A stretch of DNA of 64,000 bases from a virus: positions 14,500 to 78,499 of the IMG/VR virus record IMGVR_UViG_3300037541_000696; one strand, 5' to 3'. The notes under the pieces are model-generated. The model was not told where the DNA came from. It ran no database searches and was given only the letters and a program-made list of their open reading frames with translations. A program made the translations under genes and the position numbers. Shown here in pieces: positions 2,084 to 58,272 of the stretch (position 1 is the stretch's first letter; every line of letters begins with the position of its first letter).

Positions 2084-2154
2084 TTCAGCGGAATGAATCG
2101 CGAGCACACTGTAGGTCAAAAAATGATAGGATGCACGTACTGTAACAATACGTC

Positions 2155-2586
2155 ATGGCGTTGCCGATCAATTCGTATCAAATCTTCGACCTGCTGGCGG
2201 CCGACTCAACGCTGACGGCACTTCTAGGCGTGCATCGTCTCAGGGATGGCACCACAAGGCCCGCACTGGCGCACCTATGGCCCAACGAGGCGATAGAGGC
2301 GACATCAGAATCCGCAGGGGTGGAGGTCATAGTCTACCGGTCTCCCATGGGATCCGCAACGCAGCTTGCGGAGACCGGGCAGATCGTGCCAAATTTAACA
2401 TTCAAGCTTGCCGTGACGCAATGGAAGCCAATATCTGGTGCATATAATCAATCTGCTGTTATTAACAGGCTGCTTCAATTGCTGCCAGGCGCAAACGCAT
2501 CGGACGTAACAATAGATAATTTAACAGCCGGATTGCAACAACATATCATTACATGGCAATGTGTGGCCGCTGTGATTTTGCCATAA
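2155..2586 (+). CDS. putative tail completion/terminator-type virion protein
   Basis: 143 aa, immediately upstream of tape measure; IFDLLAADSTLTALLG start resembles tail-terminator proteins. Confidence 0.45.
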   Translation: MALPINSYQIFDLLAADSTLTALLGVHRLRDGTTRPALAHLWPNEAIEATSESAGVEVIVYRSPMGSATQLAETGQIVPNLTFKLAVTQWKPISGAYNQSAVINRLLQLLPGANASDVTIDNLTAGLQQHIITWQCVAAVILP

Positions 2587-2596
2587 CGGGAAAACT
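2587..2596 (+). promoter_or_regulatory. CGGGAAAACT late-gene box (copy 1 of 6)
   Basis: Exact 10-mer right after a stop codon, 22 nt before the tape measure start. Confidence 0.7.
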
Positions 2597-2618
2597 ACAA
2601 GCAGAATAGTTTAATTGC

Positions 2619-5600
2619 GTGGCAGATCTTCAGGTAACGCTTGCCTTTTTGCTTGAAAACCAAGCAGAAGTTGCGCGTGAACTTGAAAGGACTGGTGGGA
2701 TCGCTGGGGCGGATTTTGGGAAGGGGCTGTCAGCAGGAGCAAAAAAATCTTTAGATGATTTAATTGATCAAGCCACAAAAGCGGCCAAGCAGGTTGGACT
2801 TGTTTTTAATAAGCAAAAATTTCAATTTGAAACTATTCGCGGTGAGATTGTTCCGCCTGAAGCGCTTAAAAATCTTGCTCAGGTAAGCAAAGAATTTAAG
2901 ACGGCACAAAATGCTGTACAAGCTTTTAAGGCAGCATTGTCACAAGCATCTAGGCAATCTGTTCAAGACTTTAGCCTTATTGAGGCCGCAATAACAGGCG
3001 TTGCCATATCACTCAGCAATCGACTAACCGACGCATCTCTGTCGGCACTAGGTTCAATTCGCGGTCTTATCGGAGGTTTTATAGAGCTAGATAGCGAGCT
3101 GCGCCTAGCATCTGCGGCCGCAGGCGAACAAGGTGGTTATCAACGATTATCAACGGTTGTAAGCAAGGTCGGCATCGAAGCAGCAGGCACCACAAAAGAA
3201 GTCGCACAGCTTACTACATCACTTGTGCAGGCTGGATTTAGTGTCAAAGAAGTTGAAGCAGCGCTGCCCGGAATTGTTCGCGGCGCTGAGGCAACTGGAA
3301 CAGGATTCCAAGAATTTGGAAGGATTATTGCTGATACTTTAAGATCATTTGGGCTAGAAGCTTCTGAAACAGGGCGTGTTGTTGATGTGATGGCAAAAAC
3401 TGTGAATAGCAGTAGTGCCCAAATGGAAGACTTAAGTTATACACTTAAGTCTTCTGCCTTAACTGCTAAGGCTGTTGGCATCTCCATGGAAGAGTTGGCC
3501 GCTGCGACTGGCTTGCTGGCTAATGTAGGTATTCGCAGTAGTGTTGCTGGTACAGGGTTGCGCACAATGATTGAGCGACTGGGAAGGGCATCCGGTGGCG
3601 CATCTCAAGATGTTTTAGATCTGGCATGGGGGCAAGAGCGCCTTGCCAAGGCCATGGTAAAGGTTGGCGCCAGTGTAATTGATGCAAACGGAAATATGCT
3701 GCCTTTAGAGGATCAGTTAATTAAGCTCAAAGATGGGTTTAATGATTTTAGTCAAGCAGACCAAATTCAGCTTTCTAATATCTTATTTGGCGATGAAGCC
3801 GGTAATAAATTTCTGTCAATTATCAATCAAAGCACATCATCTATTCGAGATATGTTTGCTGAGATTAGAGACAGCAAAGGATCAACGGATGAGGCACGAA
3901 AAGAAATGGCTGGCTTCGGGCTTGAATTAAAGCAACTTGAAGGAACTCTTGGTAGTATTGGAAATGATATTGGCCAGGTTGTTGTTGCTGTATTGCGTCC
4001 ATTGCTGGGCATCGCAAATCAACTTGCCGGCACTGTATCGGGATTGCCGACACCAATTAAAGCTACTGCTATTGTGCTAACCGCACTTGGCGCCGCTGGA
4101 TTAGCAGCAAGTATAGGCATTGCGGCAATAGGACTTGCCGTAAAAAATATAGGTGGTTTTTCTGTATTGCGCGATCAGATTGCATTAGTAACTAGCACAA
4201 TTACTGGCCCATTTGCTGCGTCAACTGTTGTTTTTCTTGGTGTTGCCGCTGCTGTTGGGTTGATGACAGGTCAGTTTAGAAATATGGATGCTGTAACAAA
4301 ACAAGTTGTCATAACAATGATTTCATTAAGTGCAGCCATTGGCACTGCAATGGTACTTGCAAATGCACAAGTAATTGCCTCTTCGATTGCTGGATGGTCT
4401 GCTGTATTACTGCCAGTAGTTACATCATATAGGTCGTTGATTGCATTAACAAAAGGATTAACAATATCTCAAATTGCGTTAAATGTTGTCCAGGCTCCAT
4501 TGGCTGGAATTGCGGCTGTAATCGCTGGTATTACAAATGCCTATGCTGCACTAAGAAGAGGCATAGGACTTGTGGCGGCAGCAACCGCTTTTTTGCAGTC
4601 GCTAACATCTCCAGGAATGGGCGCCGCCAAGGTTGCCGCCGCTGCAATAGTTGGTGTTGCGGCCTATGGTGCGCTTAATCTTATGATTAAAGAGGCATCT
4701 AAGGAGACGTCTCAACTATCAGAAGAGCAGCGAGCTTTGCAAAGCGAAATAGAAGAAACACGTAAGCTAATTAGTGAGCAAAGAGAAATGGGATTAAATA
4801 CAGGATATGCGCAAAAAAGACTTGCTCAACTTGAGGTGAAAAAATCAGCTATTGCAGAACCGCTTGAATTTAATCTTGACATCGACCAAGCAGAAAAGAA
4901 GATTGAATTACTCAAAAAGAAACTAGAAGAATCAAAAGATGACACAACAAAAATAGCATCTGAAGCGCAAATTGAAGCGACTAGCCAATGGAAGCGATTT
5001 TTAGAGATATTGAAAAATAACGAAGATTTGAGCAAGCTTCCTGCGCCATTAAGAGAATATGCCGAAAAACTTAAGAAAGCAAACGATGATATACAAAAAT
5101 TACAAGAAAAAAGGCTAACTATTCCGATTGATGCGACTGCAGACAATGCGGAGATAAATAGGCGCGTAAGTGAACTTCAAGAATACATTAACGATTTGAC
5201 TGTTAATGTACGCATTTCAATTGAAAAATCAACAATACAAGATCAATTAAAGCGCGTTCAGCAAGAATTAAACAAAATGCCAAGCGGTGAAAACAAGGAA
5301 AAAACAAAGCTTGAAAAAGAGCGTGACCGTTTAAATGTAATGCTTAGCAAAAACAAGAATGAAGAAATTGATCGCGGCCAAAAAACAGTAGCTGTTGCAA
5401 AAGAAATAACAGCAACAAATGAAGCAAGAATTGCTTTAATTAAAACACAACAGGCAGAAGAAGAATCTTTATTGGCGCAACAGCAGATCACTGGAAAGAT
5501 CACTGAGTCGCAGCTAAGTAGAGAAACGTCAATGATTAGACTAAAAGCGATTGAATTAGAAAAAGAAATTAAACTTAAGCAGCTTAGTGCGTCAATTCAA

Positions 5601-7160
5601 GATGGCGGCAGAGAAAGTCCTTCCGCTATAACGCTACGAAAAGAAGTGGCGGATCTTAATGCTGAAAAAGCGCGAATACGAACAGATATGATCAAACAAG
5701 ACCGAGAATCTACGATTGCGAGAGAAACAGCCGCAATTCAATTGCAAAAATCTAGCTATCAGTCGCTAATGAGTCAGCGGCTGGCTGATGGAGAAATAAG
5801 TAAAGAAGCTTATGATAATGAATTAAGATACCTTGAAAAGATTACGCTAGAAAGAGAACGTGCGTCAAAAGTTTATCAACTTAATAATCCTGGCCTGTCT
5901 GCGCAAGATGATTTAGGCATTAGGCGCGAGATTGCTGATATTGATAAGTCATTAGCCGAAAACAAACTTGCCACGGCCGAGGCCTCAAGAGCAAAGCTTG
6001 AGAAGGAGCTTGATTTGCATTCAAGAATTTTAGATCTTTCTTCGCAAAATGCACAGACCGTAACAGATACAGCAAAAAATGGTTATGCGCTGCAGTTGCA
6101 ATACCTAGAAGCAATTATGGAGAATTCAAGAGCACGGCAAGAGCTGTCAAGATCAGAATTCGATGTAGCGCTTGCATTTCAAAATCGCGCTATCGCAGGC
6201 GCCGAGGCTCAACTTGCGGGCATGAGAGAATCATTAAGCAGCAAGCCTGAGGGAAGGGTATCAAAGAAAAAAGAAGAAGAAGCAAGGCTGCTAAAACTTG
6301 ATGCAATCGCCAGGAAAGAAGCAGAAATTGCTGGGATGAAAGAAAGGGCGTCTCAATTAGCTATACAAGCAAAAAGGGCTGAACTTGAAGGTCTTAATGA
6401 ACAAGAGCGCATGGAATGGTTGTCATTGGATCTCAAGCAACGCATGGCAGTGATTGATCAAGAAGCGAGATACGCTCAATCCAGGTTTCTTAATTATCAA
6501 CAAGCACTAGAATGGAGAAGATCTATGGCCAAGGCACGCGAGCCAGGCCTATCAGAAGAAGAAAGAAAGCAATATGAAGAAATCGCAAAAATACAAGGAG
6601 ATGCTCTTAACTTAAGCAAAAAAGACGTTGATTTTCAATATGAAAAACTAGGGTTGATTAAAGAAATGAACAAAGTTGAACGTGACACTTTAGCGATGAA
6701 TCAAAAATCAAGGAGAAATAAGGTCTATTCTGAACTCATATCACTTGGCGGTGCTCGTTTTGCTGGTGGTGATGTAATTCCAAGCAAAGATTATGTTATC
6801 AACGAGATTGGAAGAGAGAGCTTCTTGTCTGATTCTGGACAGCTTTCATGGATCAATCGCCCAGCCAATGCGCTGTGGCGGCCCCCTTCTCGGGGCATGG
6901 TTCTCCCGGCAGACGTATCGGCTCAGCTAGCAGGCGCTGGTCTTCTGCCAGGAGGTCGCTCAGGTACACCTGGAGGGCGCATTGAGCGCGTAGTTGAGGC
7001 GGCTGGCATGGCTGGCGGTGCAATGGCGTTGATTGCCGGCCATTCTGTCGCAATAGGAAAACTACAGAAGAGTATTGACCGGCTAGTTGCTAAGGATTGG
7101 AATGTTACTGTGCCAGTAGCAAGCAGTGCTAGATTACTGAAAACTGTTAGTGCATTCTAA
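2619..7160 (+). CDS. tail tape measure protein (TP901-type core)
   Basis: 1513 aa; Ala/Gly-rich TMP core (GIRSSVAGTGLRTM, LFGDEAG), hydrophobic mid segment, long coiled coil, C-terminal RFAGG..VINEIGRESF motif. Confidence 0.92.
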   Translation: MADLQVTLAFLLENQAEVARELERTGGIAGADFGKGLSAGAKKSLDDLIDQATKAAKQVGLVFNKQKFQFETIRGEIVPPEALKNLAQVSKEFKTAQNAVQAFKAALSQASRQSVQDFSLIEAAITGVAISLSNRLTDASLSALGSIRGLIGGFIELDSELRLASAAAGEQGGYQRLSTVVSKVGIEAAGTTKEVAQLTTSLVQAGFSVKEVEAALPGIVRGAEATGTGFQEFGRIIADTLRSFGLEASETGRVVDVMAKTVNSSSAQMEDLSYTLKSSALTAKAVGISMEELAAATGLLANVGIRSSVAGTGLRTMIERLGRASGGASQDVLDLAWGQERLAKAMVKVGASVIDANGNMLPLEDQLIKLKDGFNDFSQADQIQLSNILFGDEAGNKFLSIINQSTSSIRDMFAEIRDSKGSTDEARKEMAGFGLELKQLEGTLGSIGNDIGQVVVAVLRPLLGIANQLAGTVSGLPTPIKATAIVLTALGAAGLAASIGIAAIGLAVKNIGGFSVLRDQIALVTSTITGPFAASTVVFLGVAAAVGLMTGQFRNMDAVTKQVVITMISLSAAIGTAMVLANAQVIASSIAGWSAVLLPVVTSYRSLIALTKGLTISQIALNVVQAPLAGIAAVIAGITNAYAALRRGIGLVAAATAFLQSLTSPGMGAAKVAAAAIVGVAAYGALNLMIKEASKETSQLSEEQRALQSEIEETRKLISEQREMGLNTGYAQKRLAQLEVKKSAIAEPLEFNLDIDQAEKKIELLKKKLEESKDDTTKIASEAQIEATSQWKRFLEILKNNEDLSKLPAPLREYAEKLKKANDDIQKLQEKRLTIPIDATADNAEINRRVSELQEYINDLTVNVRISIEKSTIQDQLKRVQQELNKMPSGENKEKTKLEKERDRLNVMLSKNKNEEIDRGQKTVAVAKEITATNEARIALIKTQQAEEESLLAQQQITGKITESQLSRETSMIRLKAIELEKEIKLKQLSASIQDGGRESPSAITLRKEVADLNAEKARIRTDMIKQDRESTIARETAAIQLQKSSYQSLMSQRLADGEISKEAYDNELRYLEKITLERERASKVYQLNNPGLSAQDDLGIRREIADIDKSLAENKLATAEASRAKLEKELDLHSRILDLSSQNAQTVTDTAKNGYALQLQYLEAIMENSRARQELSRSEFDVALAFQNRAIAGAEAQLAGMRESLSSKPEGRVSKKKEEEARLLKLDAIARKEAEIAGMKERASQLAIQAKRAELEGLNEQERMEWLSLDLKQRMAVIDQEARYAQSRFLNYQQALEWRRSMAKAREPGLSEEERKQYEEIAKIQGDALNLSKKDVDFQYEKLGLIKEMNKVERDTLAMNQKSRRNKVYSELISLGGARFAGGDVIPSKDYVINEIGRESFLSDSGQLSWINRPANALWRPPSRGMVLPADVSAQLAGAGLLPGGRSGTPGGRIERVVEAAGMAGGAMALIAGHSVAIGKLQKSIDRLVAKDWNVTVPVASSARLLKTVSAF

Positions 7161-7900
7161 TGGCAATTACAATCTCTTATTCCGGCTCAACAGTTACCAT
7201 TCCAGATAGGCTTGTGAAGTCTCCGTTTGGATTTAACGAGGTCAATACAAGGCGTGGAAGAACAGCAGAAATGATCTCAATAGATGGGCTGCTTCTTAGG
7301 TCTGAAGCTGCAGCACTTGTCGCACTATTTAAGTCATATCGTGATGTAAAAATTACAGAAGAAGATCCACAAAAAACAGGTGTTACTGGAGCAACTGTTG
7401 CAATTACTGGATCTGGTGTTGGTTTTTCATGGAACAATAGGGCATGTTGGGTAGACAAGGCTCCATCGGTTGAATATAGGGGCGCATTTGTTAAGGTTAC
7501 GGCTGATTTTGTAGATGCAACACAAGCGCTGCAGATCTTGCTAGAGGAGCGTGATGATAGCGATGAAGACGGGATTAACCTTGGCACAATCACCCTTGGA
7601 TCTGCCGTGATTAACCTTTTGTCGTATCCATTGACCTATGAAGAACTACCGCAACCGAGCCGCAATCCTGCTGGCGTGCATGTTTTTACTGGCCAGCTTA
7701 CGCTTCAGGAAGCCAAAGAGGTGGAGGGATGGGTGACCGAAGTAAACAAAAACAATCTTGAATCATGGTTGACAACCGTTACCGCAACAACACCTGCGCC
7801 TAATACGTGGTATCCGGTTTCGTATCAACGTCCAGTAGCCAAGACAAGATTTGGAGCACTGACGTATGATGTAGGTCTTAAAATCATTAAAATACGATAA
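7160..7900 (+). CDS. putative distal tail / tail-tip protein
   Basis: Directly follows TMP with overlapping stop/start; beta-rich 246 aa. Confidence 0.55.
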   Translation: MAITISYSGSTVTIPDRLVKSPFGFNEVNTRRGRTAEMISIDGLLLRSEAAALVALFKSYRDVKITEEDPQKTGVTGATVAITGSGVGFSWNNRACWVDKAPSVEYRGAFVKVTADFVDATQALQILLEERDDSDEDGINLGTITLGSAVINLLSYPLTYEELPQPSRNPAGVHVFTGQLTLQEAKEVEGWVTEVNKNNLESWLTTVTATTPAPNTWYPVSYQRPVAKTRFGALTYDVGLKIIKIR

Positions 7901-10761
7901 TGGCTGTTGATACTAGGAGTTGGTCGTGGTGCAACCTAGGGAAGTTGTCTCCAGACGCTACAACACTGTCTGAGACGCACCTACAAGGCTCGGGAGGAGG
8001 TGTCATCAAGGTCACCGGCACGATCAACCTATCTGGAATCTATCGCCCGTCAGTGGGCACAGAAGTGTTCCTGGCGGCAAGTGACGGGCAAAGATGGATA
8101 TGCAGAATTCCTCGTAAGTTACGCGTAATTGATAGCTTTGCGGATCCATTGCGCAAGATCACTACCGTATCAGTTGGGTGCAAGTTTGCTTATTTTGAAA
8201 ATAGAAAAGCTCCTGTGCTTTTGCGTTCGGTAACAGAAGAAGAAGCCAACCCATTTGTCACGCAATTGGAGCGTGAACTTAGGACGCAGACAATATCATC
8301 AAAATTTGTAGCAGAAAAGATATTGCAGGAGCTTGGTCTTACAGCAGCAAGCTCCATCCCGTTTACGAGCCATCGCATCATGAGCGAATGGGACCTATCT
8401 GGCGGTTATGTTCAAGAATTAGCAAAGATAGCAGAAGCTGAATGCTATCGCTGCAGGTTAAACGAGTATGAACAGGTAGAATTTATTAACCTACTGAATC
8501 AAGGTGTTAGTGCTGCACCATTGCTCACCGAAAATCAGCTAGTAGATATTTCCCCTCAAACTGTTGGCGATCTACCGGCAGAAGCCGTCTATGCGTCATA
8601 TTCGTATAATGTACTCAGGCCTCAACCTAAAGAAACGGATACGTTAAAGCGTCACTGGGAACGAGATGAAAGCACATCGGTTGAGCAGTATATTCACAAC
8701 GGCCCAGATGAAATAGAAAGCGGAACATTTGTTTCGTCTAGGAGAACAGAAACTGAATATGATACAAAAGATAGAGTTAAAAGGAGAGTCGAAACATCGG
8801 CAAACTTAACAGGTACAACAATTGCAATCACTGAATATACCTATGAAGCTCCAGCGCCGCAGCGAAATGAAGACGGCACGCTGCCGCCACCAGATGAATT
8901 TAATGATTATACGGTTGTTCAAAAAGAAGAATACAGGCAAACATCCCCGATTGCCGATATTGCTGGAAGTTGTGGATTTGAAGGTTCGTTAGGTGAATTA
9001 CGAGCGCTTGGCACCTATCTAAGCGCAAAGCGAACAACTGAATATGATAGAGATAAAGTTTCTGGAATTACAAAGCAAGTAACGCGTAATTGGGTGCCTT
9101 TTGGTAGCACACCATTTGGATCAGATGCCGTGCAAAAAAGTGCATTTGATATGTCAGTAGGTGATTTAATTGCTAGCGCAAGCGCATTGGTTGAATATGG
9201 AAGTGAAGTTAGCATAAGAACAGAGCGTGAATATGGATTACGCAAAAGGCCAAGTCAGCAGGAGCGTAATTTATCATCTGATCGGCTGTATCCAAATTTT
9301 GCCCAAAGAAGTGATTTTGCGTGGACAACTGGATCGGCAACATCACAAACAAGCATTGAGCTTTCGCCTCCATTTGTGTCTGATGATCGAATGGAAAAAA
9401 GCACCGTCAATGGTGTAGTGACGTGGACATATCAACCGTCAGACGCCTATAGGCAAGCATTGAATTATGCACGCACAGAAAACAAGCTACTTTTAGGGAA
9501 TCGCTCTGGCGCTGGCATTCAGATCAGGTTAATTGATGCCCCAGCAAGGCCTTTTGATTTGTTTTATCTTCGCATGAATAATTGCACAGCGGCATATAGG
9601 TCAAATGGCATGACGTGGACTATAAAAGGGGATGGAATCATTGTATCAGTCGATGCTTTATTTATGGGCGCAATAGATGGCAATATCAATGACGCATGGT
9701 TTCCTCTTCCTAGTGGAATCACATCACTTCCAAGCCTATACGCCATTGCAACAAATTCTAACCCATTGCCATCAAACGCAATAAACATACCATCAAATTT
9801 TGATCCAACAAATGTTGATCTAACTGCGCTATTTGCATCACTCCCGAGTGGTCAGGCGCCAGTTCCTGCAGCCACGTTGAATCCGTCTGCGATAGTATTG
9901 CCGTATCAAGAAACATTGCCAATACATGCTGGGATTCAAGTGGGACTTAGTGTTGAAATTGTTGAACCAGACCTGCCGGCTCAATCATTGGTGGCCGGAG
10001 TAGACGTTGCTGCGTTGATCACTGCGATGCCAGCACAGGTTAGCTTGATTGCAGGAGTCGAAGTTGGATTGTCTTATACTGAAGAATCTACTGCAAGTGA
10101 TGTTGTATTTCAGCTTCAAATGTCTGGCTCAAATGGAAGCACTACATTTACAGATTTAAGCCCTAATGCAATAGCTGTAACAACAGGCGGAGGAGCGCAA
10201 GTCAATGGTAACGAACTTTTGTTAGATGGAGATGATGATTATTTGTATGCCGAAAACTCGGCTCTTGTGTTGACATCCGATCAGCCGTGGACAGTCGAGA
10301 TGTTTGTAACTCCGCTAGATATTCCTTTTTATTCTTTCATTGGTATAATGACATTTTTCAATGATTCGCAAGTTGATCAAAACGGATCGCCTATTATTCA
10401 ATCAGGAATCACCCTTGGCATTATGGCAGGGTACTGGGCGTTTGGTGATGCAAATATGACTACAGATTTTGAGCTAGAAGCACAAGTAAATACAAAAGTT
10501 CATGTTGCAATTGTGGCATCAGGTGATGGCACCTTTAGGCTTGCAATTGCGGGAACATTTATTGCGACTAGAACTTTCTATGGCGTATATCAAGAAGGAG
10601 CCAACAAGCTTTATATTGGCAAAATTGAAGATCCAAATATAAATGCAGGCACTCCATATGATCTTGATTTTAATGGTAAGATAGGACCGTTCCGAATCAC
10701 ATCCGCAGAACTTTATACTGGAGCAACATTTACACCACCCACATCATTCCCTAATCCATAA
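7900..10761 (+). CDS. tail hub/minor tail protein with C-terminal LamG/concanavalin-like domain
   Basis: C-terminus GSNGSTTFTDLS..LLLDGDDDYL..WTVEMFV..HVAIV..FNGKIGPFRIT..YTGATFTPPT is LamG-like; position after TMP. Confidence 0.7.
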   Translation: MAVDTRSWSWCNLGKLSPDATTLSETHLQGSGGGVIKVTGTINLSGIYRPSVGTEVFLAASDGQRWICRIPRKLRVIDSFADPLRKITTVSVGCKFAYFENRKAPVLLRSVTEEEANPFVTQLERELRTQTISSKFVAEKILQELGLTAASSIPFTSHRIMSEWDLSGGYVQELAKIAEAECYRCRLNEYEQVEFINLLNQGVSAAPLLTENQLVDISPQTVGDLPAEAVYASYSYNVLRPQPKETDTLKRHWERDESTSVEQYIHNGPDEIESGTFVSSRRTETEYDTKDRVKRRVETSANLTGTTIAITEYTYEAPAPQRNEDGTLPPPDEFNDYTVVQKEEYRQTSPIADIAGSCGFEGSLGELRALGTYLSAKRTTEYDRDKVSGITKQVTRNWVPFGSTPFGSDAVQKSAFDMSVGDLIASASALVEYGSEVSIRTEREYGLRKRPSQQERNLSSDRLYPNFAQRSDFAWTTGSATSQTSIELSPPFVSDDRMEKSTVNGVVTWTYQPSDAYRQALNYARTENKLLLGNRSGAGIQIRLIDAPARPFDLFYLRMNNCTAAYRSNGMTWTIKGDGIIVSVDALFMGAIDGNINDAWFPLPSGITSLPSLYAIATNSNPLPSNAINIPSNFDPTNVDLTALFASLPSGQAPVPAATLNPSAIVLPYQETLPIHAGIQVGLSVEIVEPDLPAQSLVAGVDVAALITAMPAQVSLIAGVEVGLSYTEESTASDVVFQLQMSGSNGSTTFTDLSPNAIAVTTGGGAQVNGNELLLDGDDDYLYAENSALVLTSDQPWTVEMFVTPLDIPFYSFIGIMTFFNDSQVDQNGSPIIQSGITLGIMAGYWAFGDANMTTDFELEAQVNTKVHVAIVASGDGTFRLAIAGTFIATRTFYGVYQEGANKLYIGKIEDPNINAGTPYDLDFNGKIGPFRITSAELYTGATFTPPTSFPNP

Positions 10762-10771
10762 CGGGAAAACT
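10762..10771 (+). promoter_or_regulatory. CGGGAAAACT late-gene box (copy 2)
   Basis: Exact 10-mer right after a stop codon, 19 nt before ATG 10791. Confidence 0.7.
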
Positions 10772-10790
10772 ATCACAACTCATTAGTCCT

Positions 10791-11234
10791 ATGGCGTCAG
10801 TTTTTCAGGTCAGTACAAGCGAACTTCTTAGGGTGCATTCTTCATCCTACGAGGGCAAGGTGGTCAGGTTTTGCCTTGCTTTTAACTCTGTATTAACAGT
10901 TGAATCAACTACTGCGCAATGGGATGCGGTTGAGCTAGCTAGCACCAATGGTTATGCGCGATCTGTTATTACAATTCCTTCCGCGAGTTATGATGGTACA
11001 ATTGGAATGGCTAAAACTGCAGAATTAACGGCTACATTTACTGCGTCTGGTGCTGGATTTACCTTTAATCGCGTGTATGGCGTCATTGGAACTGTGTCCG
11101 GTGGTGTTACAACATGGAACACAAATATCAGTTATTTATGGGCTGAAACTGAATCTATTGGATTGTCACCTGGCGTTTCAAGGCCATATAAGGTAGTATT
11201 TTTGTCAGATAACAAAACATCTAGCCCATTGTGA
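10791..11234 (+). CDS. minor tail/virion structural protein
   Basis: ELASTNGYAR..ATFTASG motif common in phage minor tail proteins. Confidence 0.55.
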   Translation: MASVFQVSTSELLRVHSSSYEGKVVRFCLAFNSVLTVESTTAQWDAVELASTNGYARSVITIPSASYDGTIGMAKTAELTATFTASGAGFTFNRVYGVIGTVSGGVTTWNTNISYLWAETESIGLSPGVSRPYKVVFLSDNKTSSPL

Positions 11235-12406
11235 CGACACGCATTTCTGTTGATTTGCCGGCTGACTTGCTAGAAGCAGCTAATTTGAATCAATATAGAA
11301 ATAGGACTAGATTAGCAACAAGAGAAAATGGAAGCAAATTTAAGCAAGATGCGTTAAAACAGGTTGAGTTGCTGCCGGCAAAAGACAAGAAAGATTTGTA
11401 CAAAGGTGCTGTTCCTGAATACAGGCAAAGCATTGCATTATCAAAGACAAGTAACATTGATTTTGGATGGCTTATTGTTGAAGAATCTTGCAAAAACCTT
11501 ACATATTCAAATACTGTTGACGCGTGTCAACAGACAAGATTTAATGGAAGAAACATTGATTACGATTATTCGTTTGCTGCTGGAACACGAGTATCAAGCG
11601 GCTCAAGATATTTCAAAGACTCGCAAATATCATACATGCGAGGGGTTGACTATTCTCATGAAGGCACAAGCGGGCCGGGTTTTCCTTTGCCACCGCCCAT
11701 TCCAGACTCGGAAAAAATTAAACTTAACAGGGCCAATTTTAGTGGACTTGGAGTATCAACTTCAACAGCTTTGAATAATATAGATAGAGCAAGATTTGTT
11801 GAATTTACAATTTCTAAACAACTGAAAAACATCAAAAGCAATATCTTTACCGGATTTGTTAATTGCCCTGGAGGCATAGTGATAGATACGTCTAATAGCT
11901 TTCAAGATTTTGATCATTATATGCTAAACCTATATTTTTCTATTGCCAAGACCAACGGAGCAGGTTTTTTGTATGTCGTATGGAAAACAACTGGCAACGA
12001 AAGTTCTGGAAACGGATTTGACAATGGGCTGAGAATTTTAGAAAGAGATGGTGTGAGCTTAAATGGATATGGAAGAAGACTTGCTGTAACTTGGTGGACC
12101 AAGAATGGCGAATTTGCTGGTGGAATGCCTTTTGTTGGAGCAACAAGAAAACAATCGTATCAAGACTATCGAGTATTCTCAGAGGAATTGTTGCCAGAAA
12201 ATCTTCGTGGATTCATGACTGCAATTTTTGAAATAAACCCAAATATCGTCAGCAACCCATATCAACTTATTCCAAAATTGACTTTTTTTGCAAAGCCAGA
12301 AGCGCAGTTGAATTCTAACAGTCCATACGGATCAGAGACTGCTACAATATCACTTAATGAAAAGTTTTTAATTGCTATTTCAGGAAGAAATTATGCAGCA
12401 ACCTAA
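11231..12406 (+). CDS. hypothetical virion-associated protein
   Basis: 391-aa ORF translationally coupled within the structural operon. Confidence 0.6.
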   Translation: MTTRISVDLPADLLEAANLNQYRNRTRLATRENGSKFKQDALKQVELLPAKDKKDLYKGAVPEYRQSIALSKTSNIDFGWLIVEESCKNLTYSNTVDACQQTRFNGRNIDYDYSFAAGTRVSSGSRYFKDSQISYMRGVDYSHEGTSGPGFPLPPPIPDSEKIKLNRANFSGLGVSTSTALNNIDRARFVEFTISKQLKNIKSNIFTGFVNCPGGIVIDTSNSFQDFDHYMLNLYFSIAKTNGAGFLYVVWKTTGNESSGNGFDNGLRILERDGVSLNGYGRRLAVTWWTKNGEFAGGMPFVGATRKQSYQDYRVFSEELLPENLRGFMTAIFEINPNIVSNPYQLIPKLTFFAKPEAQLNSNSPYGSETATISLNEKFLIAISGRNYAAT

Positions 12407-12533
12407 TCAATCGCAATCTGAAGAATCAGCAGAAATTTCTTCTTTGCTTGCATTAAGCAATCGCGCAAAGTTGCAAGCTCGCGAACGAGACAATAGAACA
12501 CTTGCGGAAGTAATGAGGCAAGCTAAGGAATAG
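12393..12533 (+). CDS. small hypothetical protein (46 aa, MQQPNQSQSEESAE...)
   Basis: Manual translation; fills the gap between the 391-aa ORF and the next CGGGAAAACT box. Confidence 0.5.
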   Translation: MQQPNQSQSEESAEISSLLALSNRAKLQARERDNRTLAEVMRQAKE

Positions 12534-12537
12534 TAAT

Positions 12538-12547
12538 CGGGAAAACT
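12538..12547 (+). promoter_or_regulatory. CGGGAAAACT late-gene box (copy 3)
   Basis: Exact 10-mer upstream of the scaffold gene. Confidence 0.7.
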
Positions 12548-12592
12548 TAACCTGCAACTTATGCCGGCTGAGCGATTCACCGGTCATAATCC

Positions 12593-13417
12593 ATGAAAAA
12601 AATCTGGCTCAACAAGCTCCCCTTTGCCAGTGATTTCCCAATCCCCACCGTTGATGATGCGCCTGAAGGTGATCAAGTCGGAGGGGGTTCCGCTGATGAC
12701 TCTATCGGCGAATTAGACCATTCTGATGATGATAGCGAGCCCCTTGGAGAAGAGGGCAGGAAAGCGCTGACAAGAGAACGGCAGGCTCGAAAAGAGCGTG
12801 AGCGCGAATTGTCACAATTGAGGGAGCAGCTCAAGGCTGTTGCTGAAATCAACCCGGATTTGTATAAAAAAACACTTGAGCGAGCGGAAGAACTTAAGCG
12901 CACGCTTGAGGAAAAGGAGCGTGAGACCACTGAGGCGACAAGGCGCATTCGCGAAAAAGCTGACTCCGAGGTTCGAGCGGCAAGGCAGGCCGCTGATGCC
13001 GCTGAGCGGGCGCGAATTGATCTGCTGACCAAGACTGCAGGGCAGCAGATTTTTAGGTTGAATAAGGGGCTGGATGAAGTTGATGAAGTGCTCGGTCAAA
13101 CATCATTCGATGCGTGGTGGAGACTTCATGGAAGCCAACACCTTAAATGGGACAACAAATTGAATAACGTTGTTGTTGTTGACAAGGATGGGGATCCGAT
13201 CACTGAAGATGGCAAGCCGGTTGATCCTGTCAAGTGGCTAGACGAAGTTGCCGATAAGTCACCAATGGTGGCTCAATACTTCAGATCAAAATCTGGTGAG
13301 GGATCTGGTGGTCTTCAGGGTGCACGAAATGTGCGCACTGTGACAAGTAGAAACAAACAAGATCTAGCAAAACTTAGTCCCGACAAGCTGCTTGAGGAGC
13401 ATTACAGCAACAAATAA
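12593..13417 (+). CDS. capsid scaffolding protein
   Basis: Acidic flexible N-terminus, EEGRKALTRERQARK coiled coil, C-terminal G-rich linker; directly upstream of the major capsid gene. Confidence 0.75.
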   Translation: MKKIWLNKLPFASDFPIPTVDDAPEGDQVGGGSADDSIGELDHSDDDSEPLGEEGRKALTRERQARKERERELSQLREQLKAVAEINPDLYKKTLERAEELKRTLEEKERETTEATRRIREKADSEVRAARQAADAAERARIDLLTKTAGQQIFRLNKGLDEVDEVLGQTSFDAWWRLHGSQHLKWDNKLNNVVVVDKDGDPITEDGKPVDPVKWLDEVADKSPMVAQYFRSKSGEGSGGLQGARNVRTVTSRNKQDLAKLSPDKLLEEHYSNK

Positions 13418-13428
13418 GAATTGTTGAC

Positions 13429-14534: not shown

Positions 14535-14572
14535 TTTTGATCATCAAACCATTCAACCACTGAGGTCACTCA

Positions 14573-46578: not shown

Positions 46579-46977
46579 ATGGGACTTGATCTTTCTATCG
46601 ACGTTTTTTCAGGTGGTTATGTTGCGTTCGACCGGCTGCGTGCGTTCATTTGTGAGGCTACTGGCGGTAGCTGGCCGCCTCATTCTGATCAAACATTAGA
46701 TCCTGAGATTTGGTATATTGATGATGCGTTTAGCAAAAGTACTCATCCTGGGCTTTGGGAGCTTTTGTCACATTCAGATAGCATGGGTGAAATTAGTCCA
46801 TCGCTATGTGCATCATTAGCAAAGGATCTGGAAGAATTGCTGCCGGCCATGATTAAAATGGACTCAATTGGTCAGGGTCATATTGCAAACAATGGAGGAT
46901 ATGTTCCGATTGTGAAAAAATTGATTATTGGATGCAAGGCTGCTGCTGATATGGGTGAGCCTTTGTGTTTTAGGTGA
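46579..46977 (+). CDS. conserved phage protein (MGLD..LLSHSDxxGEI)
   Basis: Recognisable phage motif; function unknown. Confidence 0.65.
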   Translation: MGLDLSIDVFSGGYVAFDRLRAFICEATGGSWPPHSDQTLDPEIWYIDDAFSKSTHPGLWELLSHSDSMGEISPSLCASLAKDLEELLPAMIKMDSIGQGHIANNGGYVPIVKKLIIGCKAAADMGEPLCFR

Positions 46978-46978
46978 T

Positions 46979-46995
46979 TGCGACAGTTTGTTACG
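46979..46995 (+). promoter_or_regulatory. tandem-box promoter
   Basis: TGCGACA-gtt-TGTTACG, 29 nt from TAGGAT (47025-47030), then a leader hairpin. Confidence 0.7.
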
Positions 46996-47079
46996 GATCT
47001 TGGCTGTTGGCAGGATGCGTGCCTTAGGATCAGTGCATCGGGCGGAAAAATCTGCTCGGCATTCCTTGCGTCTTAATTC

Positions 47080-47319
47080 ATGGTTACTACCGCCCCTTTG
47101 CTTTCTGTTGGCACGTTTGGGGTTCATTTAATTAAGTCTTCTACTGGTTTTTCTTTTGTTGGTGCTGTACCTACTGGCATCAAAGTTGGTGGCTATAGCA
47201 GCATTGAAGATGGAATCGCGGCATTTGTTCGTTGGTTCAAATCACAAGATGCTTCTTTCCAGCGTGAGCATGTTGGCAATCTTCGCAATGATGTATTTGT
47301 GATGATGTTTGCTTCTTGA
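47080..47319 (+). CDS. small early hypothetical protein
   Basis: Directly under the tandem-box promoter. Confidence 0.65.
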   Translation: MVTTAPLLSVGTFGVHLIKSSTGFSFVGAVPTGIKVGGYSSIEDGIAAFVRWFKSQDASFQREHVGNLRNDVFVMMFAS

Positions 47320-47332
47320 TTAGCCTCGTGCA

Positions 47333-47674
47333 TTGCCTCAATCCTTTTCTGGCACCATCTACCCCTTCTGCATCATGATTTTTGAAGCGCAGCGCCTTCG
47401 CAATCTGACAACCGAAAGATTGCACACTAAGATGGATGATATTTATACGGATATTTGCTTGGTAATGGGTCTACCTTCAATTATGACTCATTCTCTTCCT
47501 GCTGCAAACAAAGCAATTGCTCCGTGGCTGCACAAGCACGTTAAAGAGCCATCTTTTTGGGATGGCAGCTACAATCCTGGGTTAAAAGGTATCGTTTACT
47601 TGCCAGATCCAACACCCGAAGAACAACAAGAAATGAAAACACTTTGGATAGCTGAATTAAATGACATTTCCTGA
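47333..47674 (+). CDS. hypothetical protein
   Basis: AQRLRNLTTxRLHT motif; true start probably MIFEAQ. Confidence 0.6.
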   Translation: MPQSFSGTIYPFCIMIFEAQRLRNLTTERLHTKMDDIYTDICLVMGLPSIMTHSLPAANKAIAPWLHKHVKEPSFWDGSYNPGLKGIVYLPDPTPEEQQEMKTLWIAELNDIS

Positions 47675-47746
47675 CCTAGCCTTCATCATATTTAGCTTTC
47701 TGCCTGCCGGAGCTTTTCCTGTATCATTTCCCTCGCTCGAATCATC

Positions 47747-47977
47747 ATGACCACTTCTGTCAAATACGGCTTTTATTCTGAAATTGCGGCAAAACAGTTT
47801 GGAACTTTTATTTACCTTGATACAAACAACAAAGAAGTGGAAGTAACAAACATATCCTTAGATCAATTATGTAGCGGGTATCACTTTGCCGATAAGGTTT
47901 GCCTAGGGCAGGTGACGACTTTTGTTCGCAAAGGGCGAAGAGGCAACGATAGCTGGCTTAAAACTTTTGTGACATAA
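47747..47977 (+). CDS. hypothetical protein
   Basis: ORF track. Confidence 0.55.
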   Translation: MTTSVKYGFYSEIAAKQFGTFIYLDTNNKEVEVTNISLDQLCSGYHFADKVCLGQVTTFVRKGRRGNDSWLKTFVT

Positions 47978-48287: not shown

Positions 48288-51200
48288 GTGTCTGATTTTC
48301 CAGCGTCCGCACCTGCTGCTAATCCAGTCTTCTATCGCACTTACAGTCGAAAGGGTGCGCACGGTCGTGAAAGTTGGCAGCAGGTTGTAGATCGCAATCT
48401 GAGCGGGCTGGCGAAGGTTGGCAGACTCACGGATGACCAGGTTGCCTTGCTGCGCAGGATGCAACTGGAGCAAAAAGCATTGCCGTCCGGTCGCTGGCTT
48501 TGGGTTGGTGGTACAGAATGGATCGAAAAACCAGAAAATGTAAGCGGTGCATATAATTGCACATCAACCGATCTAGTTGATTGGCGTGCATTTGCTCTGA
48601 TGATGGATCTAGCGATGATGGGTAGTGGAACTGGTGCCATCATTGAACCACGCATGGTTGATATGTTGCCAGTGATTCGGAATAGGTTGAATGTAACAGT
48701 TATTGGGGAATTTGGGGACAAGCCTTCTGATCCTGATACAACGTTTAAGCTTGATGCTACTAATGAATCGCTGCAAAATTGGTTTTTGGAGCCAGTTTTG
48801 GGACTTGGTCGCAGTGCGTCGATTCCTGCTGTAGCAATCGAAGTTGGCGATAGCCGCAAGGGATGGGTTGATGCCTATTGGAAAATGTTTGACCTGGCCA
48901 GCAATCCTTTTGATGTGTACCGGGGGGCAGGTAACACCGAAATTTGCGTAACAGTTGATGTTTCAAAAGTCCGCCCATCTGGTGAGCCTTTGAAAGGTTT
49001 TGGCGGCACAGCAAATCCAGTGAGGCTAAAGGATTTGTTTGTTAAAATGGCTGCGATTTTTAACAAAGCTCAAGGTAGGAAGCTTACATCAGTTGAATGT
49101 TGTTTGCTTATAGATGAAGCGGCGTTAGTTGTAGTTGCCGGTAACGTACGTCGCTCAGCCGGAATACGTCAATTCAGCGCAAATGATATTGAAGCAAGTA
49201 TAGCAAAAGACAGCCTATGGCAGCAAGATGAAGATGGTAATTGGCGCATTGATCCTGAGCGTGATGCTTTGCGCATGGCGAATCATACCTTAGTTTATCA
49301 TCATTATCCGACAAAAGAAGAAATTGTAGATTCTGTGCGGAGGCAATTCCTATCAGGCGAAGGTGCAATTATGTTTGCTCCTGAAGCTATTGCGCGTGCA
49401 AATCGAGACATCTTGCCTGATCGGCAGTTGCAGAGTGATTTTATCTCAGCTTATTGCGACCATAAGCAAAGTGGTGCTGAGATGCTTAAAAGATTGGATC
49501 CAGATTGCGTGGAAGATGATAAAAAATTGGAGCATAGAATGGGGAGATATGGTATCAATCCTTGCTTTGCGCCTGGCACCATGGTGATGACGCGTGATGG
49601 GCATTATCCTATTGAATCGCTTGTGGGCAAGACTGTTGAAATTCATGATGGGCAAAAATGGGTAAAAGTTGATAACTTTCGCGTGACCGGAAATGATCAG
49701 CCTGTTTTTGATGTAATGCTGCATTCTGGACAGGTAATTACTGCTACTGAGTATCACAAATTTATTCTTAAAAACGGGAAAAGAGTCAAGCTGGAAGATC
49801 TAAAGCCCGGAATGGAGCTTGCGTCAAGCGATGTGCGCGTTCATGGAACGGTTTCAGTCAAGGGAGCATACCTAAAAGGCTTTCTTATTGGCGATGGGAC
49901 AAGTGATGCAAACCTTGGTATACCAATTTGCAAGGTTTACGAGCCTAAGCGCATGTGTGTTAATCGCCTAATTGAATCTCAGGTGGAAATTGGAGTACAA
50001 GACCTTGTAGCTGCGAATGGTCGTCGTGTTGGTGATATTCTTGGCCTTACGGATGCTGGATATTTGCGAGCGTTGAACACTCCTATGGAGGAAAAGCTGT
50101 TACCATGGTGTTCTGTCTATAAGCATGAATTTCCGGTTGAAGTGTATAACTGGACAGATCGCGCAAAGGCTGATTTTATTGCTGGTTTGTTTGATGCTGA
50201 TGGGACATTTATGGATACAAAAAATGGATTCGCATATCAACTTACATCAGTGTCGCGAAAATTTCTTGAGGGATTTGGTATTTTGCTAACCGGGATGGGA
50301 ATCAAGTGGAAGATTGGTCCCGTTCGCAAGGGCGGAGTAAAGGACTGGGGTGAACGCGGTGGTATTTGCAATGCACAAGATACCTATCGTTTGACAATTC
50401 CTCAATCTGGATCCATAGCGCTGTCAAGGCTGGTAACATTTGAAAGGCTTAAAAGTGCATCTAATAAGTCAACCATTAACAAAGTGCGAAACAAGGGCAA
50501 TGTAATCAGCTCTGTTGAATTTTCACACATTGCTCCCGCTGTCTATTGCTGCACTGTTCCTATAACTCATTCATTCATTCTTTCAGGTGGTCAGCTAGTT
50601 GGGCAGTGCGGCGAAATCGAAGGTAAAAACTTTCACTGTAACCTAGCAGAAGTGCACCTAAATCGCATATCACCAGCTGATCATGCTGAGCAGAAAAATG
50701 CTTTCACGGCGGCTGCATTGTCTGTTGCTGCATTGTTGCATCATAAGTTTCAAGAACCGCGTTATCAGTACAGCAGGGAGATTGATCCTATTGTTGGCGT
50801 GAGCTTTACCGGATTGTTTGACTTTTTTGTTGAGGCATTTGGTGTATCATGGCTTGAATGGTGGGCAAAGGGCCGGCCTGATACAGATGAAGGAGTTGCA
50901 TATAAAGAAGTGGAGGCGAATTATCTTAAGCGCTGGCGCGAAATTGTGGAAGAAACCATCAAGAAGTATTGCGGCCGCCATGGATTGAATTGTCCTAATC
51001 GGATGACAACATGCCAGCCTGCAGGCACCAAGAGCCTGCTCACGGGCGCATCTCCCGGCTGGCATCCGCCGAAGGCGCAGCGGTTCATTCGCCGCATCAC
51101 CTTCCGCAAGAACGATCCCGTGGCCCTGGCCTGCCTGGAATACGGCTACAGCATTGTGCCCAGCCAGAGCGACAAGGATGAGCAGGGCCGCCTATTGGAT

Positions 51201-51680
51201 GATCCCTTCGATCCTCGATGCACGGAATGGCTGGTAGAGATCCCAACTGAGGTGAGCTGGGCGAATTTGCCAGGGGCGGATAAGATCAGGATTGATCAGT
51301 TTTCAGCGCTTGCGCAATTTGACTTCTACATGCAAGTACAGATGCACTATACAATGCATAACACATCTGCCACGATTGAGTTTAGGGAACATGAAATTGA
51401 GCCCTTGGCTAACAAGATTCATGATGCAATCGTGAATCACAGGGGTTACATCTCCGCCGCGTTGTTAGCTCGCTTTGATGCAAACGAAACATTCCCCCGC
51501 TTGCCCTTTGAGCCGATCGACAAGGCAGCATACGAGCGGCTTCGTGAAGAAGTATTACAGCGTCGCAAGGGTGACGACTTCTTTGGTTTGCTCCGAGCCT
51601 ATGATGGCGGTAGTTTGGTGGAGGCTGGCCCAGCAGGGTGTGACTCGGATAAGTGCTTGCTACCGCAGGTTAAAAAGTGA
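48288..51680 (+). CDS. nrdJ: class II (B12-dependent) ribonucleotide reductase with intein
   Basis: FYRTYSR, LPSGRWLWVGG, YNCT, GNVRRSA, NP|C..|CGEI, QPAGTKSLL, HNTSATI, C-terminal GCDSDKC. Confidence 0.95.
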   Translation: MSDFPASAPAANPVFYRTYSRKGAHGRESWQQVVDRNLSGLAKVGRLTDDQVALLRRMQLEQKALPSGRWLWVGGTEWIEKPENVSGAYNCTSTDLVDWRAFALMMDLAMMGSGTGAIIEPRMVDMLPVIRNRLNVTVIGEFGDKPSDPDTTFKLDATNESLQNWFLEPVLGLGRSASIPAVAIEVGDSRKGWVDAYWKMFDLASNPFDVYRGAGNTEICVTVDVSKVRPSGEPLKGFGGTANPVRLKDLFVKMAAIFNKAQGRKLTSVECCLLIDEAALVVVAGNVRRSAGIRQFSANDIEASIAKDSLWQQDEDGNWRIDPERDALRMANHTLVYHHYPTKEEIVDSVRRQFLSGEGAIMFAPEAIARANRDILPDRQLQSDFISAYCDHKQSGAEMLKRLDPDCVEDDKKLEHRMGRYGINPCFAPGTMVMTRDGHYPIESLVGKTVEIHDGQKWVKVDNFRVTGNDQPVFDVMLHSGQVITATEYHKFILKNGKRVKLEDLKPGMELASSDVRVHGTVSVKGAYLKGFLIGDGTSDANLGIPICKVYEPKRMCVNRLIESQVEIGVQDLVAANGRRVGDILGLTDAGYLRALNTPMEEKLLPWCSVYKHEFPVEVYNWTDRAKADFIAGLFDADGTFMDTKNGFAYQLTSVSRKFLEGFGILLTGMGIKWKIGPVRKGGVKDWGERGGICNAQDTYRLTIPQSGSIALSRLVTFERLKSASNKSTINKVRNKGNVISSVEFSHIAPAVYCCTVPITHSFILSGGQLVGQCGEIEGKNFHCNLAEVHLNRISPADHAEQKNAFTAAALSVAALLHHKFQEPRYQYSREIDPIVGVSFTGLFDFFVEAFGVSWLEWWAKGRPDTDEGVAYKEVEANYLKRWREIVEETIKKYCGRHGLNCPNRMTTCQPAGTKSLLTGASPGWHPPKAQRFIRRITFRKNDPVALACLEYGYSIVPSQSDKDEQGRLLDDPFDPRCTEWLVEIPTEVSWANLPGADKIRIDQFSALAQFDFYMQVQMHYTMHNTSATIEFREHEIEPLANKIHDAIVNHRGYISAALLARFDANETFPRLPFEPIDKAAYERLREEVLQRRKGDDFFGLLRAYDGGSLVEAGPAGCDSDKCLLPQVKK
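49563..50606 (+). mobile_element. intein (348 aa) with LAGLIDADG endonuclease in nrdJ
   Basis: CFAPGTMV, ATEYHKF, LKGFLIGDG, FIAGLFDADG, VYCCTV..LVGQ|CGE. Confidence 0.92.
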
Positions 51681-56699: not shown

Positions 56700-56752
56700 C
56701 TGGATCGTGGTACATGATCACCGACCGTAACACTGTGCAACACTTTGAGTAA

Positions 56753-56769
56753 TGTTGCGGATTGTTTCA
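56753..56769 (+). promoter_or_regulatory. tandem-box promoter
   Basis: TGTTGCG-gat-TGTTTCA, 28 nt from GATGAT (56798-56803), then GGGCA-GAAA-TGCTC hairpin; an extra box pair lies at 56726-56742. Confidence 0.55.
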
Positions 56770-56844
56770 ACCACAGGCAGTGGCTGGCTTGATGAGCGAT
56801 GATTAGGTCACGAGGGCAGAAATGCTCCACACTTTGCTAACACC

Positions 56845-57210
56845 ATGGGATTTTTGACTACTGTCACGCTTTACAATGATGGCTTACACCTGTTAAAGGA
56901 ATATCCCGAAGAGTTTTGCGAAAAACTATATGACGCATCAGCAAGCATGGATCGTCAAGAGTTCGGATTGGGCGGTTTTTGCAATTTTGCCAATGTTCAG
57001 CGAACAAGGCACGCAGATGATCACACGCTTTATATTCACATGGGCAATTGCGTGACGGAAGTTCATCCTTGGACCAAAGAGTTTGAGCATCTGATTAGAA
57101 CACACCCTGACCTTATAGACGCATATATCCGCTTTTTGGAAGGTACACTACAGGAAATGAAAGAACATCGTGCGACAATTGGCAGTGATTCATTGACAAA
57201 GCAAAGTTGA
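56845..57210 (+). CDS. early hypothetical protein (MGFLTTV..ND..HADD)
   Basis: Under the tandem-box promoter. Confidence 0.65.
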   Translation: MGFLTTVTLYNDGLHLLKEYPEEFCEKLYDASASMDRQEFGLGGFCNFANVQRTRHADDHTLYIHMGNCVTEVHPWTKEFEHLIRTHPDLIDAYIRFLEGTLQEMKEHRATIGSDSLTKQS

Positions 57211-57752: not shown

Positions 57753-57825
57753 GCCGATTTAGCTCAGTTGGTAGAGCAGCGCTTTTGTAAAGCGCTTGTC
57801 GTCGGTTCGAGTCCGACAATCGGCT
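57753..57825 (+). tRNA. tRNA-Thr(UGU)
   Basis: GCCGATT/AATCGGC, GCTC-AGTTGGTA-GAGC, loop TT-TGT-AA, GTCGG-TTCGAGT-CCGAC. Confidence 0.95.
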
Positions 57826-57853
57826 TTGTATCAAGATGAACAGTTGGTGGGTT

Positions 57854-57870
57854 TGTTTCAAATTGTTACG
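57854..57870 (+). promoter_or_regulatory. tandem-box promoter
   Basis: TGTTTCA-aat-TGTTACG, 28 nt from TATAGT (57899-57904). Confidence 0.7.
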
Positions 57871-57946
57871 ACTGGCTTGTGGGCTGTCGCTTGTGCCCTA
57901 TAGTGAGTTCACAGGGGCAGAGATGCCCCACCACCCAACCCCAAAA

Positions 57947-58114
57947 ATGAACAATTTTACCATCGACCTCGAAAAAATCGAAAATTCTTTATTCAATATC
58001 CGTTGCCATTTAAATTCAATGCAAGCTGCTGAAACTCGCATGGGTAGGCAGTTGGCTACCTGCCGCAAAATTGCAGGTGATGCCATGGCTTTATTAGAAG
58101 AAGCCACTGACTAA
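57947..58114 (+). CDS. small early protein (55 aa)
   Basis: Single-gene cassette: promoter, hairpin, ATG, terminator at about 58128-58153. Confidence 0.6.
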   Translation: MNNFTIDLEKIENSLFNIRCHLNSMQAAETRMGRQLATCRKIAGDAMALLEEATD

Positions 58115-58168
58115 TAGATATAAACAAGGCTCGGCATTAAGCCGAGCTTTTTTATGTCTATGCAGAGG

Positions 58169-58185
58169 TGTTACAGGTTGTGACA
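58169..58185 (+). promoter_or_regulatory. tandem-box promoter (one helical turn further upstream)
   Basis: TGTTACA-ggt-TGTGACA, 38 nt from TATAGT (58224-58229). Confidence 0.65.
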
Positions 58186-58272
58186 ACCCTGCTTCAATCC
58201 CTTCCCTGTCAGGCCTGTTAGCCTATAGTGAGTTCACAGGGGCAGAGATGCCCCACTACCCAATCTCAAAAA

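Follow-up and report, generated by a model that had tools for sequence, protein, structure and literature searches.

The closest described counterparts of the element examined here are the HLR1 sites of the cyanobacterial RpaB regulon. HLR1 has the form (G/T)TTACA(T/A)(T/A)-N2-repeat; it activates transcription when centred between −66 and −45 (with a peak at −51) and represses it when placed over the core promoter (PMC6525291). RpaB activates the cas10 promoter from −53 to −70, and the protein is on DNA in low or normal light and off it upon a shift to high light (PMC6525291; bioRxiv 10.1101/2023.12.07.570523). The present analysis concerns a tandem box resembling HLR1, together with the promoter cassette built around it, in a DNA window of 64,000 nucleotides that corresponds to bases 14500–78499 of a 78,499-bp virus record (IMGVR_UViG_3300037541_000696) rated as complete; positions are those of the window unless the genome is named. 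Several lines of evidence, given below, mark the phage as a probable uncultured lake siphovirus of small freshwater cyanobacteria. In cyanobacterial siphoviruses without an RNA polymerase of their own, the timing of early genes is poorly understood, as is the reason why infection depends on light.

Like the activating class of HLR1 (Synechocystis photosystem I and cas10 promoters; PMC6525291, bioRxiv 10.1101/2023.12.07.570523), the phage box consists of two 8-nt units with a 10-bp period and a GTNACA-type core. Both elements are centred at about −51 to −60 (for the phage, relative to a putative start), and both belong to −10-dependent promoters without a good −35. The phage box differs in that it recurs throughout the main non-late promoter class instead of occurring singly, and in that its half site is near-palindromic (TGTNACA, with T or G as the third base) and finds its best HLR1 match on the opposite strand.

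Cyanophage promoters that depend on host regulators include those with NtcA and PhoB boxes. Occurrences of HLR1 in cyanophage genomes have also been listed, in work cited in PMC6525291. These sites, too, wire phage genes to a global host regulator, as may be the case here, but they concern single genes or a few sites, whereas in the present phage group a whole temporal class, of 12–17 promoters per genome, uses one cassette. A full-text literature search returned papers that mention HLR1 in cyanophage genomes, none of which describes such a genome-wide set. The NtcA-type class II arrangement (GTA-N8-TAC at −41.5) does not apply to the phage box, which is a direct repeat near −49 with no GTA-N8-TAC in register.

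Two further systems resemble the cassette as a whole. The promoter-early stem-loop (PeSL) cassettes of T4-like phages (PMC2839356, PMC4122927) likewise repeat a composite of promoter and stem-loop, with small early genes of high variability in between, and both kinds of cassette are likely sites of modular gene exchange. In PeSL, however, a terminator stem-loop precedes a full sigma-70 promoter, whereas the hairpin of the phage cassette follows the putative start and activator boxes would replace the −35. The variable flanking genes are shared with PeSL, but the terminator joined to a complete sigma-70 promoter is not, and the present phage is a siphovirus. The boxB/nut sites of lambdoid phages also place a short hairpin with a GNRA-like cap near the 5′ end of early transcripts; in the present phage, every unit has a promoter to itself and carries the hairpin at approximately +2 to +20. 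Neither a boxA nor a clear N-like protein was found for the phage cassettes. A weak match to the Q-like antiterminator family phrog_6060 (E-value, 1e-4) comes from a zinc-finger protein encoded at 35042–35416 (+), a gene that the relatives lack.

Architecture and conservation of the cassette

The promoter class proposed in the initial annotation is real, and it is larger and richer than first described. That annotation had listed 14 sites at which a 17-bp tandem box precedes a TAnnnT −10 at a near-constant distance. The 17-mers were found at all 14 positions, with TAnnnT (GATGAT at 56753) at the gaps reported for them. The count of about 14 promoters of one class was revised: nine of the sites are full cassettes and three others (43643, 40951 and 22792) are plausible, while the remaining two (2141 and 34946) score at a level where 29 matches of ≥8 bits to the box matrix are expected by chance. 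A profile of the whole region detected 12 full cassettes in the genome, nine of which are located within the window (nhmmer E-values from 1e-18 to 1e-6) and three upstream of it, at genome positions 4608 (−), 5718 (+) and 8911 (−). Candidate sites beyond the earlier list are found at 38377 (−) and at genome position 1888 (+), and the conserved 5′ hairpin and C/A-rich leader described below are further additions. Self-BLAST failed to recover the cassettes, including those of this genome.

The tandem box is strongly enriched. With at most one mismatch, TGTNACNNNNTGTNAC occurs 23 times in the whole genome, compared to 2.8 ± 1.7 times in 30 dinucleotide shuffles, and matches of ≥16 bits to the box matrix number 15 in the genome and 0.35 in shuffles. 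The distance to the −10 is also fixed, since TAnnnT follows at a gap of 27–29 nt for 12 of the 19 boxes with no more than two mismatches (0.76 expected; P = 7e-13); the same coupling is seen for 9/17 and 10/11 boxes in two relatives. In each of the three genomes counted, an unbiased dyad count over intergenic DNA with the late box (see below) masked gave TGT-n1-ACA and ACA-n7-ACA as two of the highest-ranking words.

The cassette is about 100 bases long and comprises, in order, the tandem boxes, a spacer of 27–29 nt (or 38 nt), a TAnnnT −10, a CA dinucleotide, a hairpin, a leader and the ATG. The box unit, TTGTKACR, is repeated at a 10-bp period, and a direct repeat is preferred over a dyad because TT precedes and R-G follows each unit. 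Readings of the box as a CRP, LexA, LysR-type (T-N11-A) or P2 Ogr (TGT-N12-ACA) site were rejected, as the flanks support a direct repeat. Over 45 cassettes, the length of the spacer between box and −10 is bimodal, with 27–31 nt in 32 cassettes and 37–41 nt in 13, i.e., the two classes are one helical turn apart. No column of the spacer reaches 70% identity; there is therefore no −35, as had been noted earlier. The CA follows after five bases past the −10 and is succeeded by a hairpin of 5–8 pairs, the loop of which is of the GNRA type (GAGA, GAAA, GGAA or GGGA) in 25 of the 45 cassettes. The leader is C/A-rich, often with ACCACCCA, and 43–55 nt separate the start codon from the beginning of the −10, counted from the first base of the latter.

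In some long-spacer cassettes (L056:1565-1664 and L056:2473-2572 in G004, L059:18688-18787 in G005, and L024:14346-14450), the −10 is preceded at a distance of about 10 nt by a third word of the GTNAC type, (C)CGTAACG(G/C). Either the same factor may use this word as an additional half site, or it may serve a second regulator.

The hairpin is supported both by folding energy and by covariation. The mean folding energy is −10.5 kcal/mol, compared to −5.3 kcal/mol for shuffled copies and −4.4 kcal/mol for windows after random TAnnnT (p ~1e-21). In 27 distinct loop-stacked hairpins, pairs 1–6 are canonical in 94% of cases, with 3–5 pair types each, against 65% with the partners shuffled (maximum of 73.5% in 2000 shuffles); these script-made counts come from a stack anchored on the predicted fold and are thus biased towards structure (MAFFT lost the register of the loop-anchored hairpins). 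None of the Rfam families matches the hairpin. A product encoded at 28419–28787 (−) shows a weak match, below the cut-off, to a phage ProQ C-terminal-like domain (E-value, 0.001) and could be an RNA-binding reader of 5′ hairpins.

Cassettes of the same type are present in other genomes. Two complete relatives, which share ~73% DNA identity with the phage over half of the genome, carry 15 and 11 cassettes, in which the boxes, the −10 and the hairpin pairing are kept while the spacers and stem sequences have diverged. That the spacers have become random and the other parts have not argues for selection on the boxes and against a recent copying of the unit. More distant relatives (terminase 49–57% identical, G–C content of 54–61%) contain about four cassettes each, mostly with a 38-nt spacer, a TACAGT −10 and the leader ACCACCCACCACC. 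No cassette was found in the 37 kb of S-CBS2 that were examined.

Likeness to HLR1 and candidate factors

The assignment of the phage to a cyanobacterial host is based on several observations. Its large terminase is closest (35% identity) to those of S-CBS2, S-CRES1-3 and PSS2, which are siphoviruses of Synechococcus and Prochlorococcus, and a gene for a SigF-type sigma factor follows terL, in the same arrangement as in S-CBS2. The phage also encodes an AbrB of the cyanobacterial type (cyAbrB), the nearest cellular relatives of which are from Cyanobium and Synechococcus (50–57% identity). A sizeable share of the stretch was found only in lake and freshwater metagenomes, and a small share in one marine run. 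The region had no megablast match among named phages.

The initial annotation had pointed to HLR1, and this likeness was borne out by comparison with host elements. In five freshwater picocyanobacterial genomes, hli genes carry HLR1 with 1–3 mismatches 23 nt before their start codons. A matrix built from 44 phage boxes only, applied to 375 kb of picocyanobacterial DNA, gave its top scores (18–23 bits) to hli HLR1 on the opposite strand; because this DNA set is rich in hli loci, the result demonstrates likeness, not genome-wide specificity. The phage sites themselves score about as high on this matrix as the hli elements do. The columns of the phage matrix correlate at 0.70 with those of the reverse-complemented host elements, a value reached by none of 500 permuted nulls (maximum of 0.54), whereas the same-strand correlation is 0.36 and was reached by 10 of the 500. 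With the start placed at the conserved A, seven nt past the −10, the 18-mer is centred at −50.5 (gap of 27–29 nt) or −60.5 (gap of 37–41 nt), so that the activator position suggested earlier agrees with the published −66 to −45 range for this deduced start.

Two observations were made in the same host-like DNA. A conserved palindrome, CTGTGACGG(C/G)TTGTCACAG, is located about 20 nt before the gene of a small Cys-rich protein in four of the five picocyanobacterial genomes and scores 14–16 bits on the phage matrix (L148, L149 and L150 in G007, G008 and G010). By eye, the host-like psaA, psaD and psaL promoters show a TTGTAAC/TGTGAAG-type element 29–39 nt before the −10; upstream of psaA (L198-L202), ATTGAACCTTTGTAAC is followed after ~29 nt by TATACT and then by a 5′ hairpin, CCCC-N4-GGGG.

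Considering that the matrix matches hli HLR1, that the deduced box centre falls in the activating range and that the phage lacks an OmpR-type protein, host RpaB is the best candidate for the factor that binds the boxes, and we hold it, on these comparisons, to be somewhat more probable than all other readings taken together. No Trans_reg_C (OmpR-type) domain was found in any frame of the phage. Among the non-structural proteins common to six box-bearing genomes, the only DNA-binding families recognized were a replication initiator and a sigma factor.

Several points weigh against RpaB. The literature consensus of HLR1 can be read with 3 mismatches in 16 positions in 10 of the 12 cassettes and with two or fewer in none, every box having 3–4 mismatches. 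The third base of the half site is systematically T or G, where a reverse-complement HLR1 reading expects A, and the best HLR1 reading lies on the strand opposite to transcription. In five host-like genomes, the phage box and HLR1 are no more frequent than a reversed-pattern control, although this test is of low power and these genomes may not represent the host of the phage. A covariance model of the long-spacer cassette gave nothing significant in the same five genomes (best E-value, 0.3), and two of its top four weak matches are beside hli genes. The resemblance of photosystem I promoters to the cassette was seen by eye only and was not used as evidence, since the two-unit matrix gives only 1–2 bits on psaA, a score reached by 9% of random windows. 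A search of sequencing runs listed no RNA run containing the phage. Finally, two of the shared proteins (199 and 230 aa) and many small phage proteins are without annotation, and the small ones could include a DNA-binding protein.

Alternatively, a phage-encoded factor would bind the boxes and turn on the middle genes, the likeness to HLR1 reflecting convergence or competition with RpaB. The candidates are a small annotation-free protein, the phage cyAbrB and a TerS-like helix-turn-helix protein (41974–42693). Such a factor is conceivable, although rather unlikely. Most of the small early proteins could not be assigned to a family, a cyAbrB regulator is encoded by the phage, the boxes all deviate systematically from the HLR1 consensus, and box-free promoters with a good −10 exist that could drive an immediate-early activator; direct repeats of 10-bp period are bound by lambda CII as well. 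However, neither an OmpR-type nor any other tandem-repeat binder was found in the phage, the proteins shared by the box-bearing genomes offer no other DNA-binding family, and cyAbrB is missing from two genomes (G003 and G004) that keep the cassettes. Moreover, the box is constant across phages of 43% to 61% G–C, as expected for a highly conserved host protein.

Another host regulator of the OmpR family, e.g., RpaA or an uncharacterised paralogue, appears improbable. Tandem boxes of the GTTACA type are generic for OmpR-like proteins, and the pattern of mismatches to HLR1 would suit such a regulator, but the nearest natural look-alikes found are hli HLR1, a classic RpaB target, and small cyanobacteria have very few response regulators. 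Least probable of all, and indeed very doubtful, is that the boxes are repressor operators that shut off early transcription, or that the cassette is a recently copied mobile promoter unit without a factor site. As with PeSL, the genes beside the cassettes are indeed highly variable, and terminators precede four of the sites. Yet the spacers are random while boxes, −10 and hairpin pairing are preserved, and a site at −57 to −41 without a −35 has the geometry of an activator site, not of an operator.

If host RpaB is indeed the factor, the cassettes would act as activator-dependent early/middle promoters as follows. The RNA polymerase of the host, carrying a sigma factor of the housekeeping type, would read the TAnnnT −10 in the absence of a −35. 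A dimer of an OmpR-type response regulator, most likely RpaB in its phosphorylated DNA-binding state, would occupy the paired TTGTKACR units head-to-tail. From there, five or six helical turns ahead of the start, it would take the place of the −35 and recruit the polymerase. Transcription would start at the conserved CA, and the first ~20 nt of the transcript would fold into the GNRA-capped hairpin, which most likely shields the 5′ end from decay of the RNase E/J type or serves as a handle for a protein.

A promoter class placed on the docking site of an essential light/redox regulator would link the light state of the host to phage expression: with RpaB as the factor, cassette genes should be expressed in low or normal light, and their expression should drop upon sudden exposure to high light. 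It is also imaginable, although we regard it as unlikely, that 12–17 high-quality boxes per genome, copied a hundred-fold, act as a sink for RpaB that drains host promoters, with the phage both sensing and rewriting light acclimation. Such a sink would bring about a high-light-like state with photosystem I down and hli and photosystem II repair up, and the phage itself could dispense with psbA and hli genes. Being compact and portable, the cassette might also be used as a part for regulated expression in picocyanobacteria.

Cassette sites, associated genes and other features of the genome

The sites of the window are listed in Table 1.

Table 1. Tandem-box promoter sites of the window, full cassettes first
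Type	Extent	Strand	Box	−10 (gap to box)	Hairpin	ATG	Remarks
Full cassette	27166–27269	−	27251–27267	TATGAT 27216–27221	27187–27208	27168 (162/146-aa ORF)	nhmmer E 1.7e-11; bidirectional terminator 27289–27307 just upstream
Full cassette	27525–27625	−	27607–27623	TATGAT 27572–27577	27545–27562 (GAGA)	27527 (70-aa ORF)	nhmmer E 7e-18
Full cassette	27943–28044	−	28026–28042	TAGGAT 27992–27997	27965–27982 (GGGA)	27945	nhmmer E 2.7e-13
Full cassette	30336–30440	−	30422–30438	TAGGAT 30387–30392	30360–30380	30338 (DUF932 gene, Pfam)	
Full cassette	32767–32848	−	32830–32846	TATGGT 32796–32801	32767–32786		Heads small variable gene block 30424–32826
Full cassette	46977–47082	+	46979–46995	TAGGAT 47025–47030	47039–47058	47080	nhmmer E 1.3e-12; unit runs towards class II ribonucleotide reductase
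Full cassette	56751–56847	+	56753–56769	GATGAT 56798–56803	56814–56827 (GAAA)	56845	nhmmer E 1.6e-13
Full cassette	57852–57949	+	57854–57870	TATAGT 57899–57904	57914–57929 (GAGA)	57947	nhmmer E 1.4e-16; directly after tRNA-Thr
Full cassette, long-spacer class	58167–58275	+	58169–58185	TATAGT 58224–58229 (38)	58239–58254	58273	Terminator 58126–58150 just upstream; unit includes dCTP deaminase-like gene (Pfam)
Box and −10	43643–43693	+		TATCGT (28)	None		17.0 bits; box and −10 conserved in relative G001
Box and −10	40951–41000	+		TATGGT (27)	None		Box good on both strands, 15.6 bits (+) and 18.8 bits (−); −10 region conserved in G001; terminator 40898–40923 just upstream
Degenerate box, −10 and hairpin	22742–22808	−	GTTAAG-N4-GTTAAG	TAGAGT (28)	CCC-GAAA-GGG		Only 9.6 bits; 28/28 identical in G001; upstream of 368-aa ORF; terminator 22818–22832 upstream
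Candidate beyond earlier list	38340–38393	−	GGTGACGAAGTGTTACA	TAGGAT (27)			17.0 bits; before DUF6551 gene
Weak box	34946–34996	+					11.1 bits, chance level; no conservation found; opposite strand is HLR1 consensus with 2 mismatches
Weak site before putative nblA unit	2108–2157	−					9.7 bits, chance level; only promoter-proximal half site good; not conserved

Based on its score and conservation, the site at 43643 is a probable promoter of the cassette class. The site at 40951 is found in the region from which the replication operon and the rightward genes diverge.

The cassettes are intergenic and oriented towards the next gene; about a dozen in number, they would serve the majority of the non-structural genes. 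Cassettes 27251 and 58169 each follow immediately after a terminator, as do the weaker sites 22792 and 40951. The genes behind them include those of the ribonucleotide reductase unit, dCTP deaminase and DUF932, the last of which had rightly been placed behind such a promoter in the initial annotation. The proposed wiring of nblA was not upheld, as Pfam finds no NblA domain in 1799–2119 and box 2141 is at chance level. Many small genes behind cassettes, among them presumed takeover genes, differ even between close relatives; for instance, the genes at 30424–32826 (mostly), 47080–47977 and 56845–57210 are absent from the relatives.

The early regions show no excess of canonical sigma-70 −35/−10 promoters (16 vs 30 expected, and 33 vs 33). 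A different box, CGGGAAAACT, precedes virion genes at 2587–19524 and 63589–63999 and is common to the relatives, including G005 (15 copies). This late-promoter class fits the SigF-type sigma factor of the phage itself, the gene of which is the only sigma gene of the phage and is cut by the end of the record.

Three tRNA genes (Leu-TAG, Met-CAT and Thr-TGT) are located at 41650–41810 and 57753–57825, and the 3′ end of tRNA-Thr is 29 nt before box 57854. An intein, itself with a LAGLIDADG domain, splits the class II ribonucleotide reductase (48288–51680). Of the 572 aa encoded by the thyX ORF (33223–34941), only residues 395–555 belong to the Thy1 domain. A stretch of ~35 nt (TGTATAGAAATGTTGCA ... 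TGCAACAAAATATGAAG) is duplicated at 42629–42663 and 42969–43003, 340 nt apart, the copies lying within two neighbouring ORFs or at their ends. Before the window, two small ORFs of the genome (L002:6234-6622) contain long runs of GGCTAYGGC-type repeats and would encode repeat proteins rich in Gly, Tyr and Asn.

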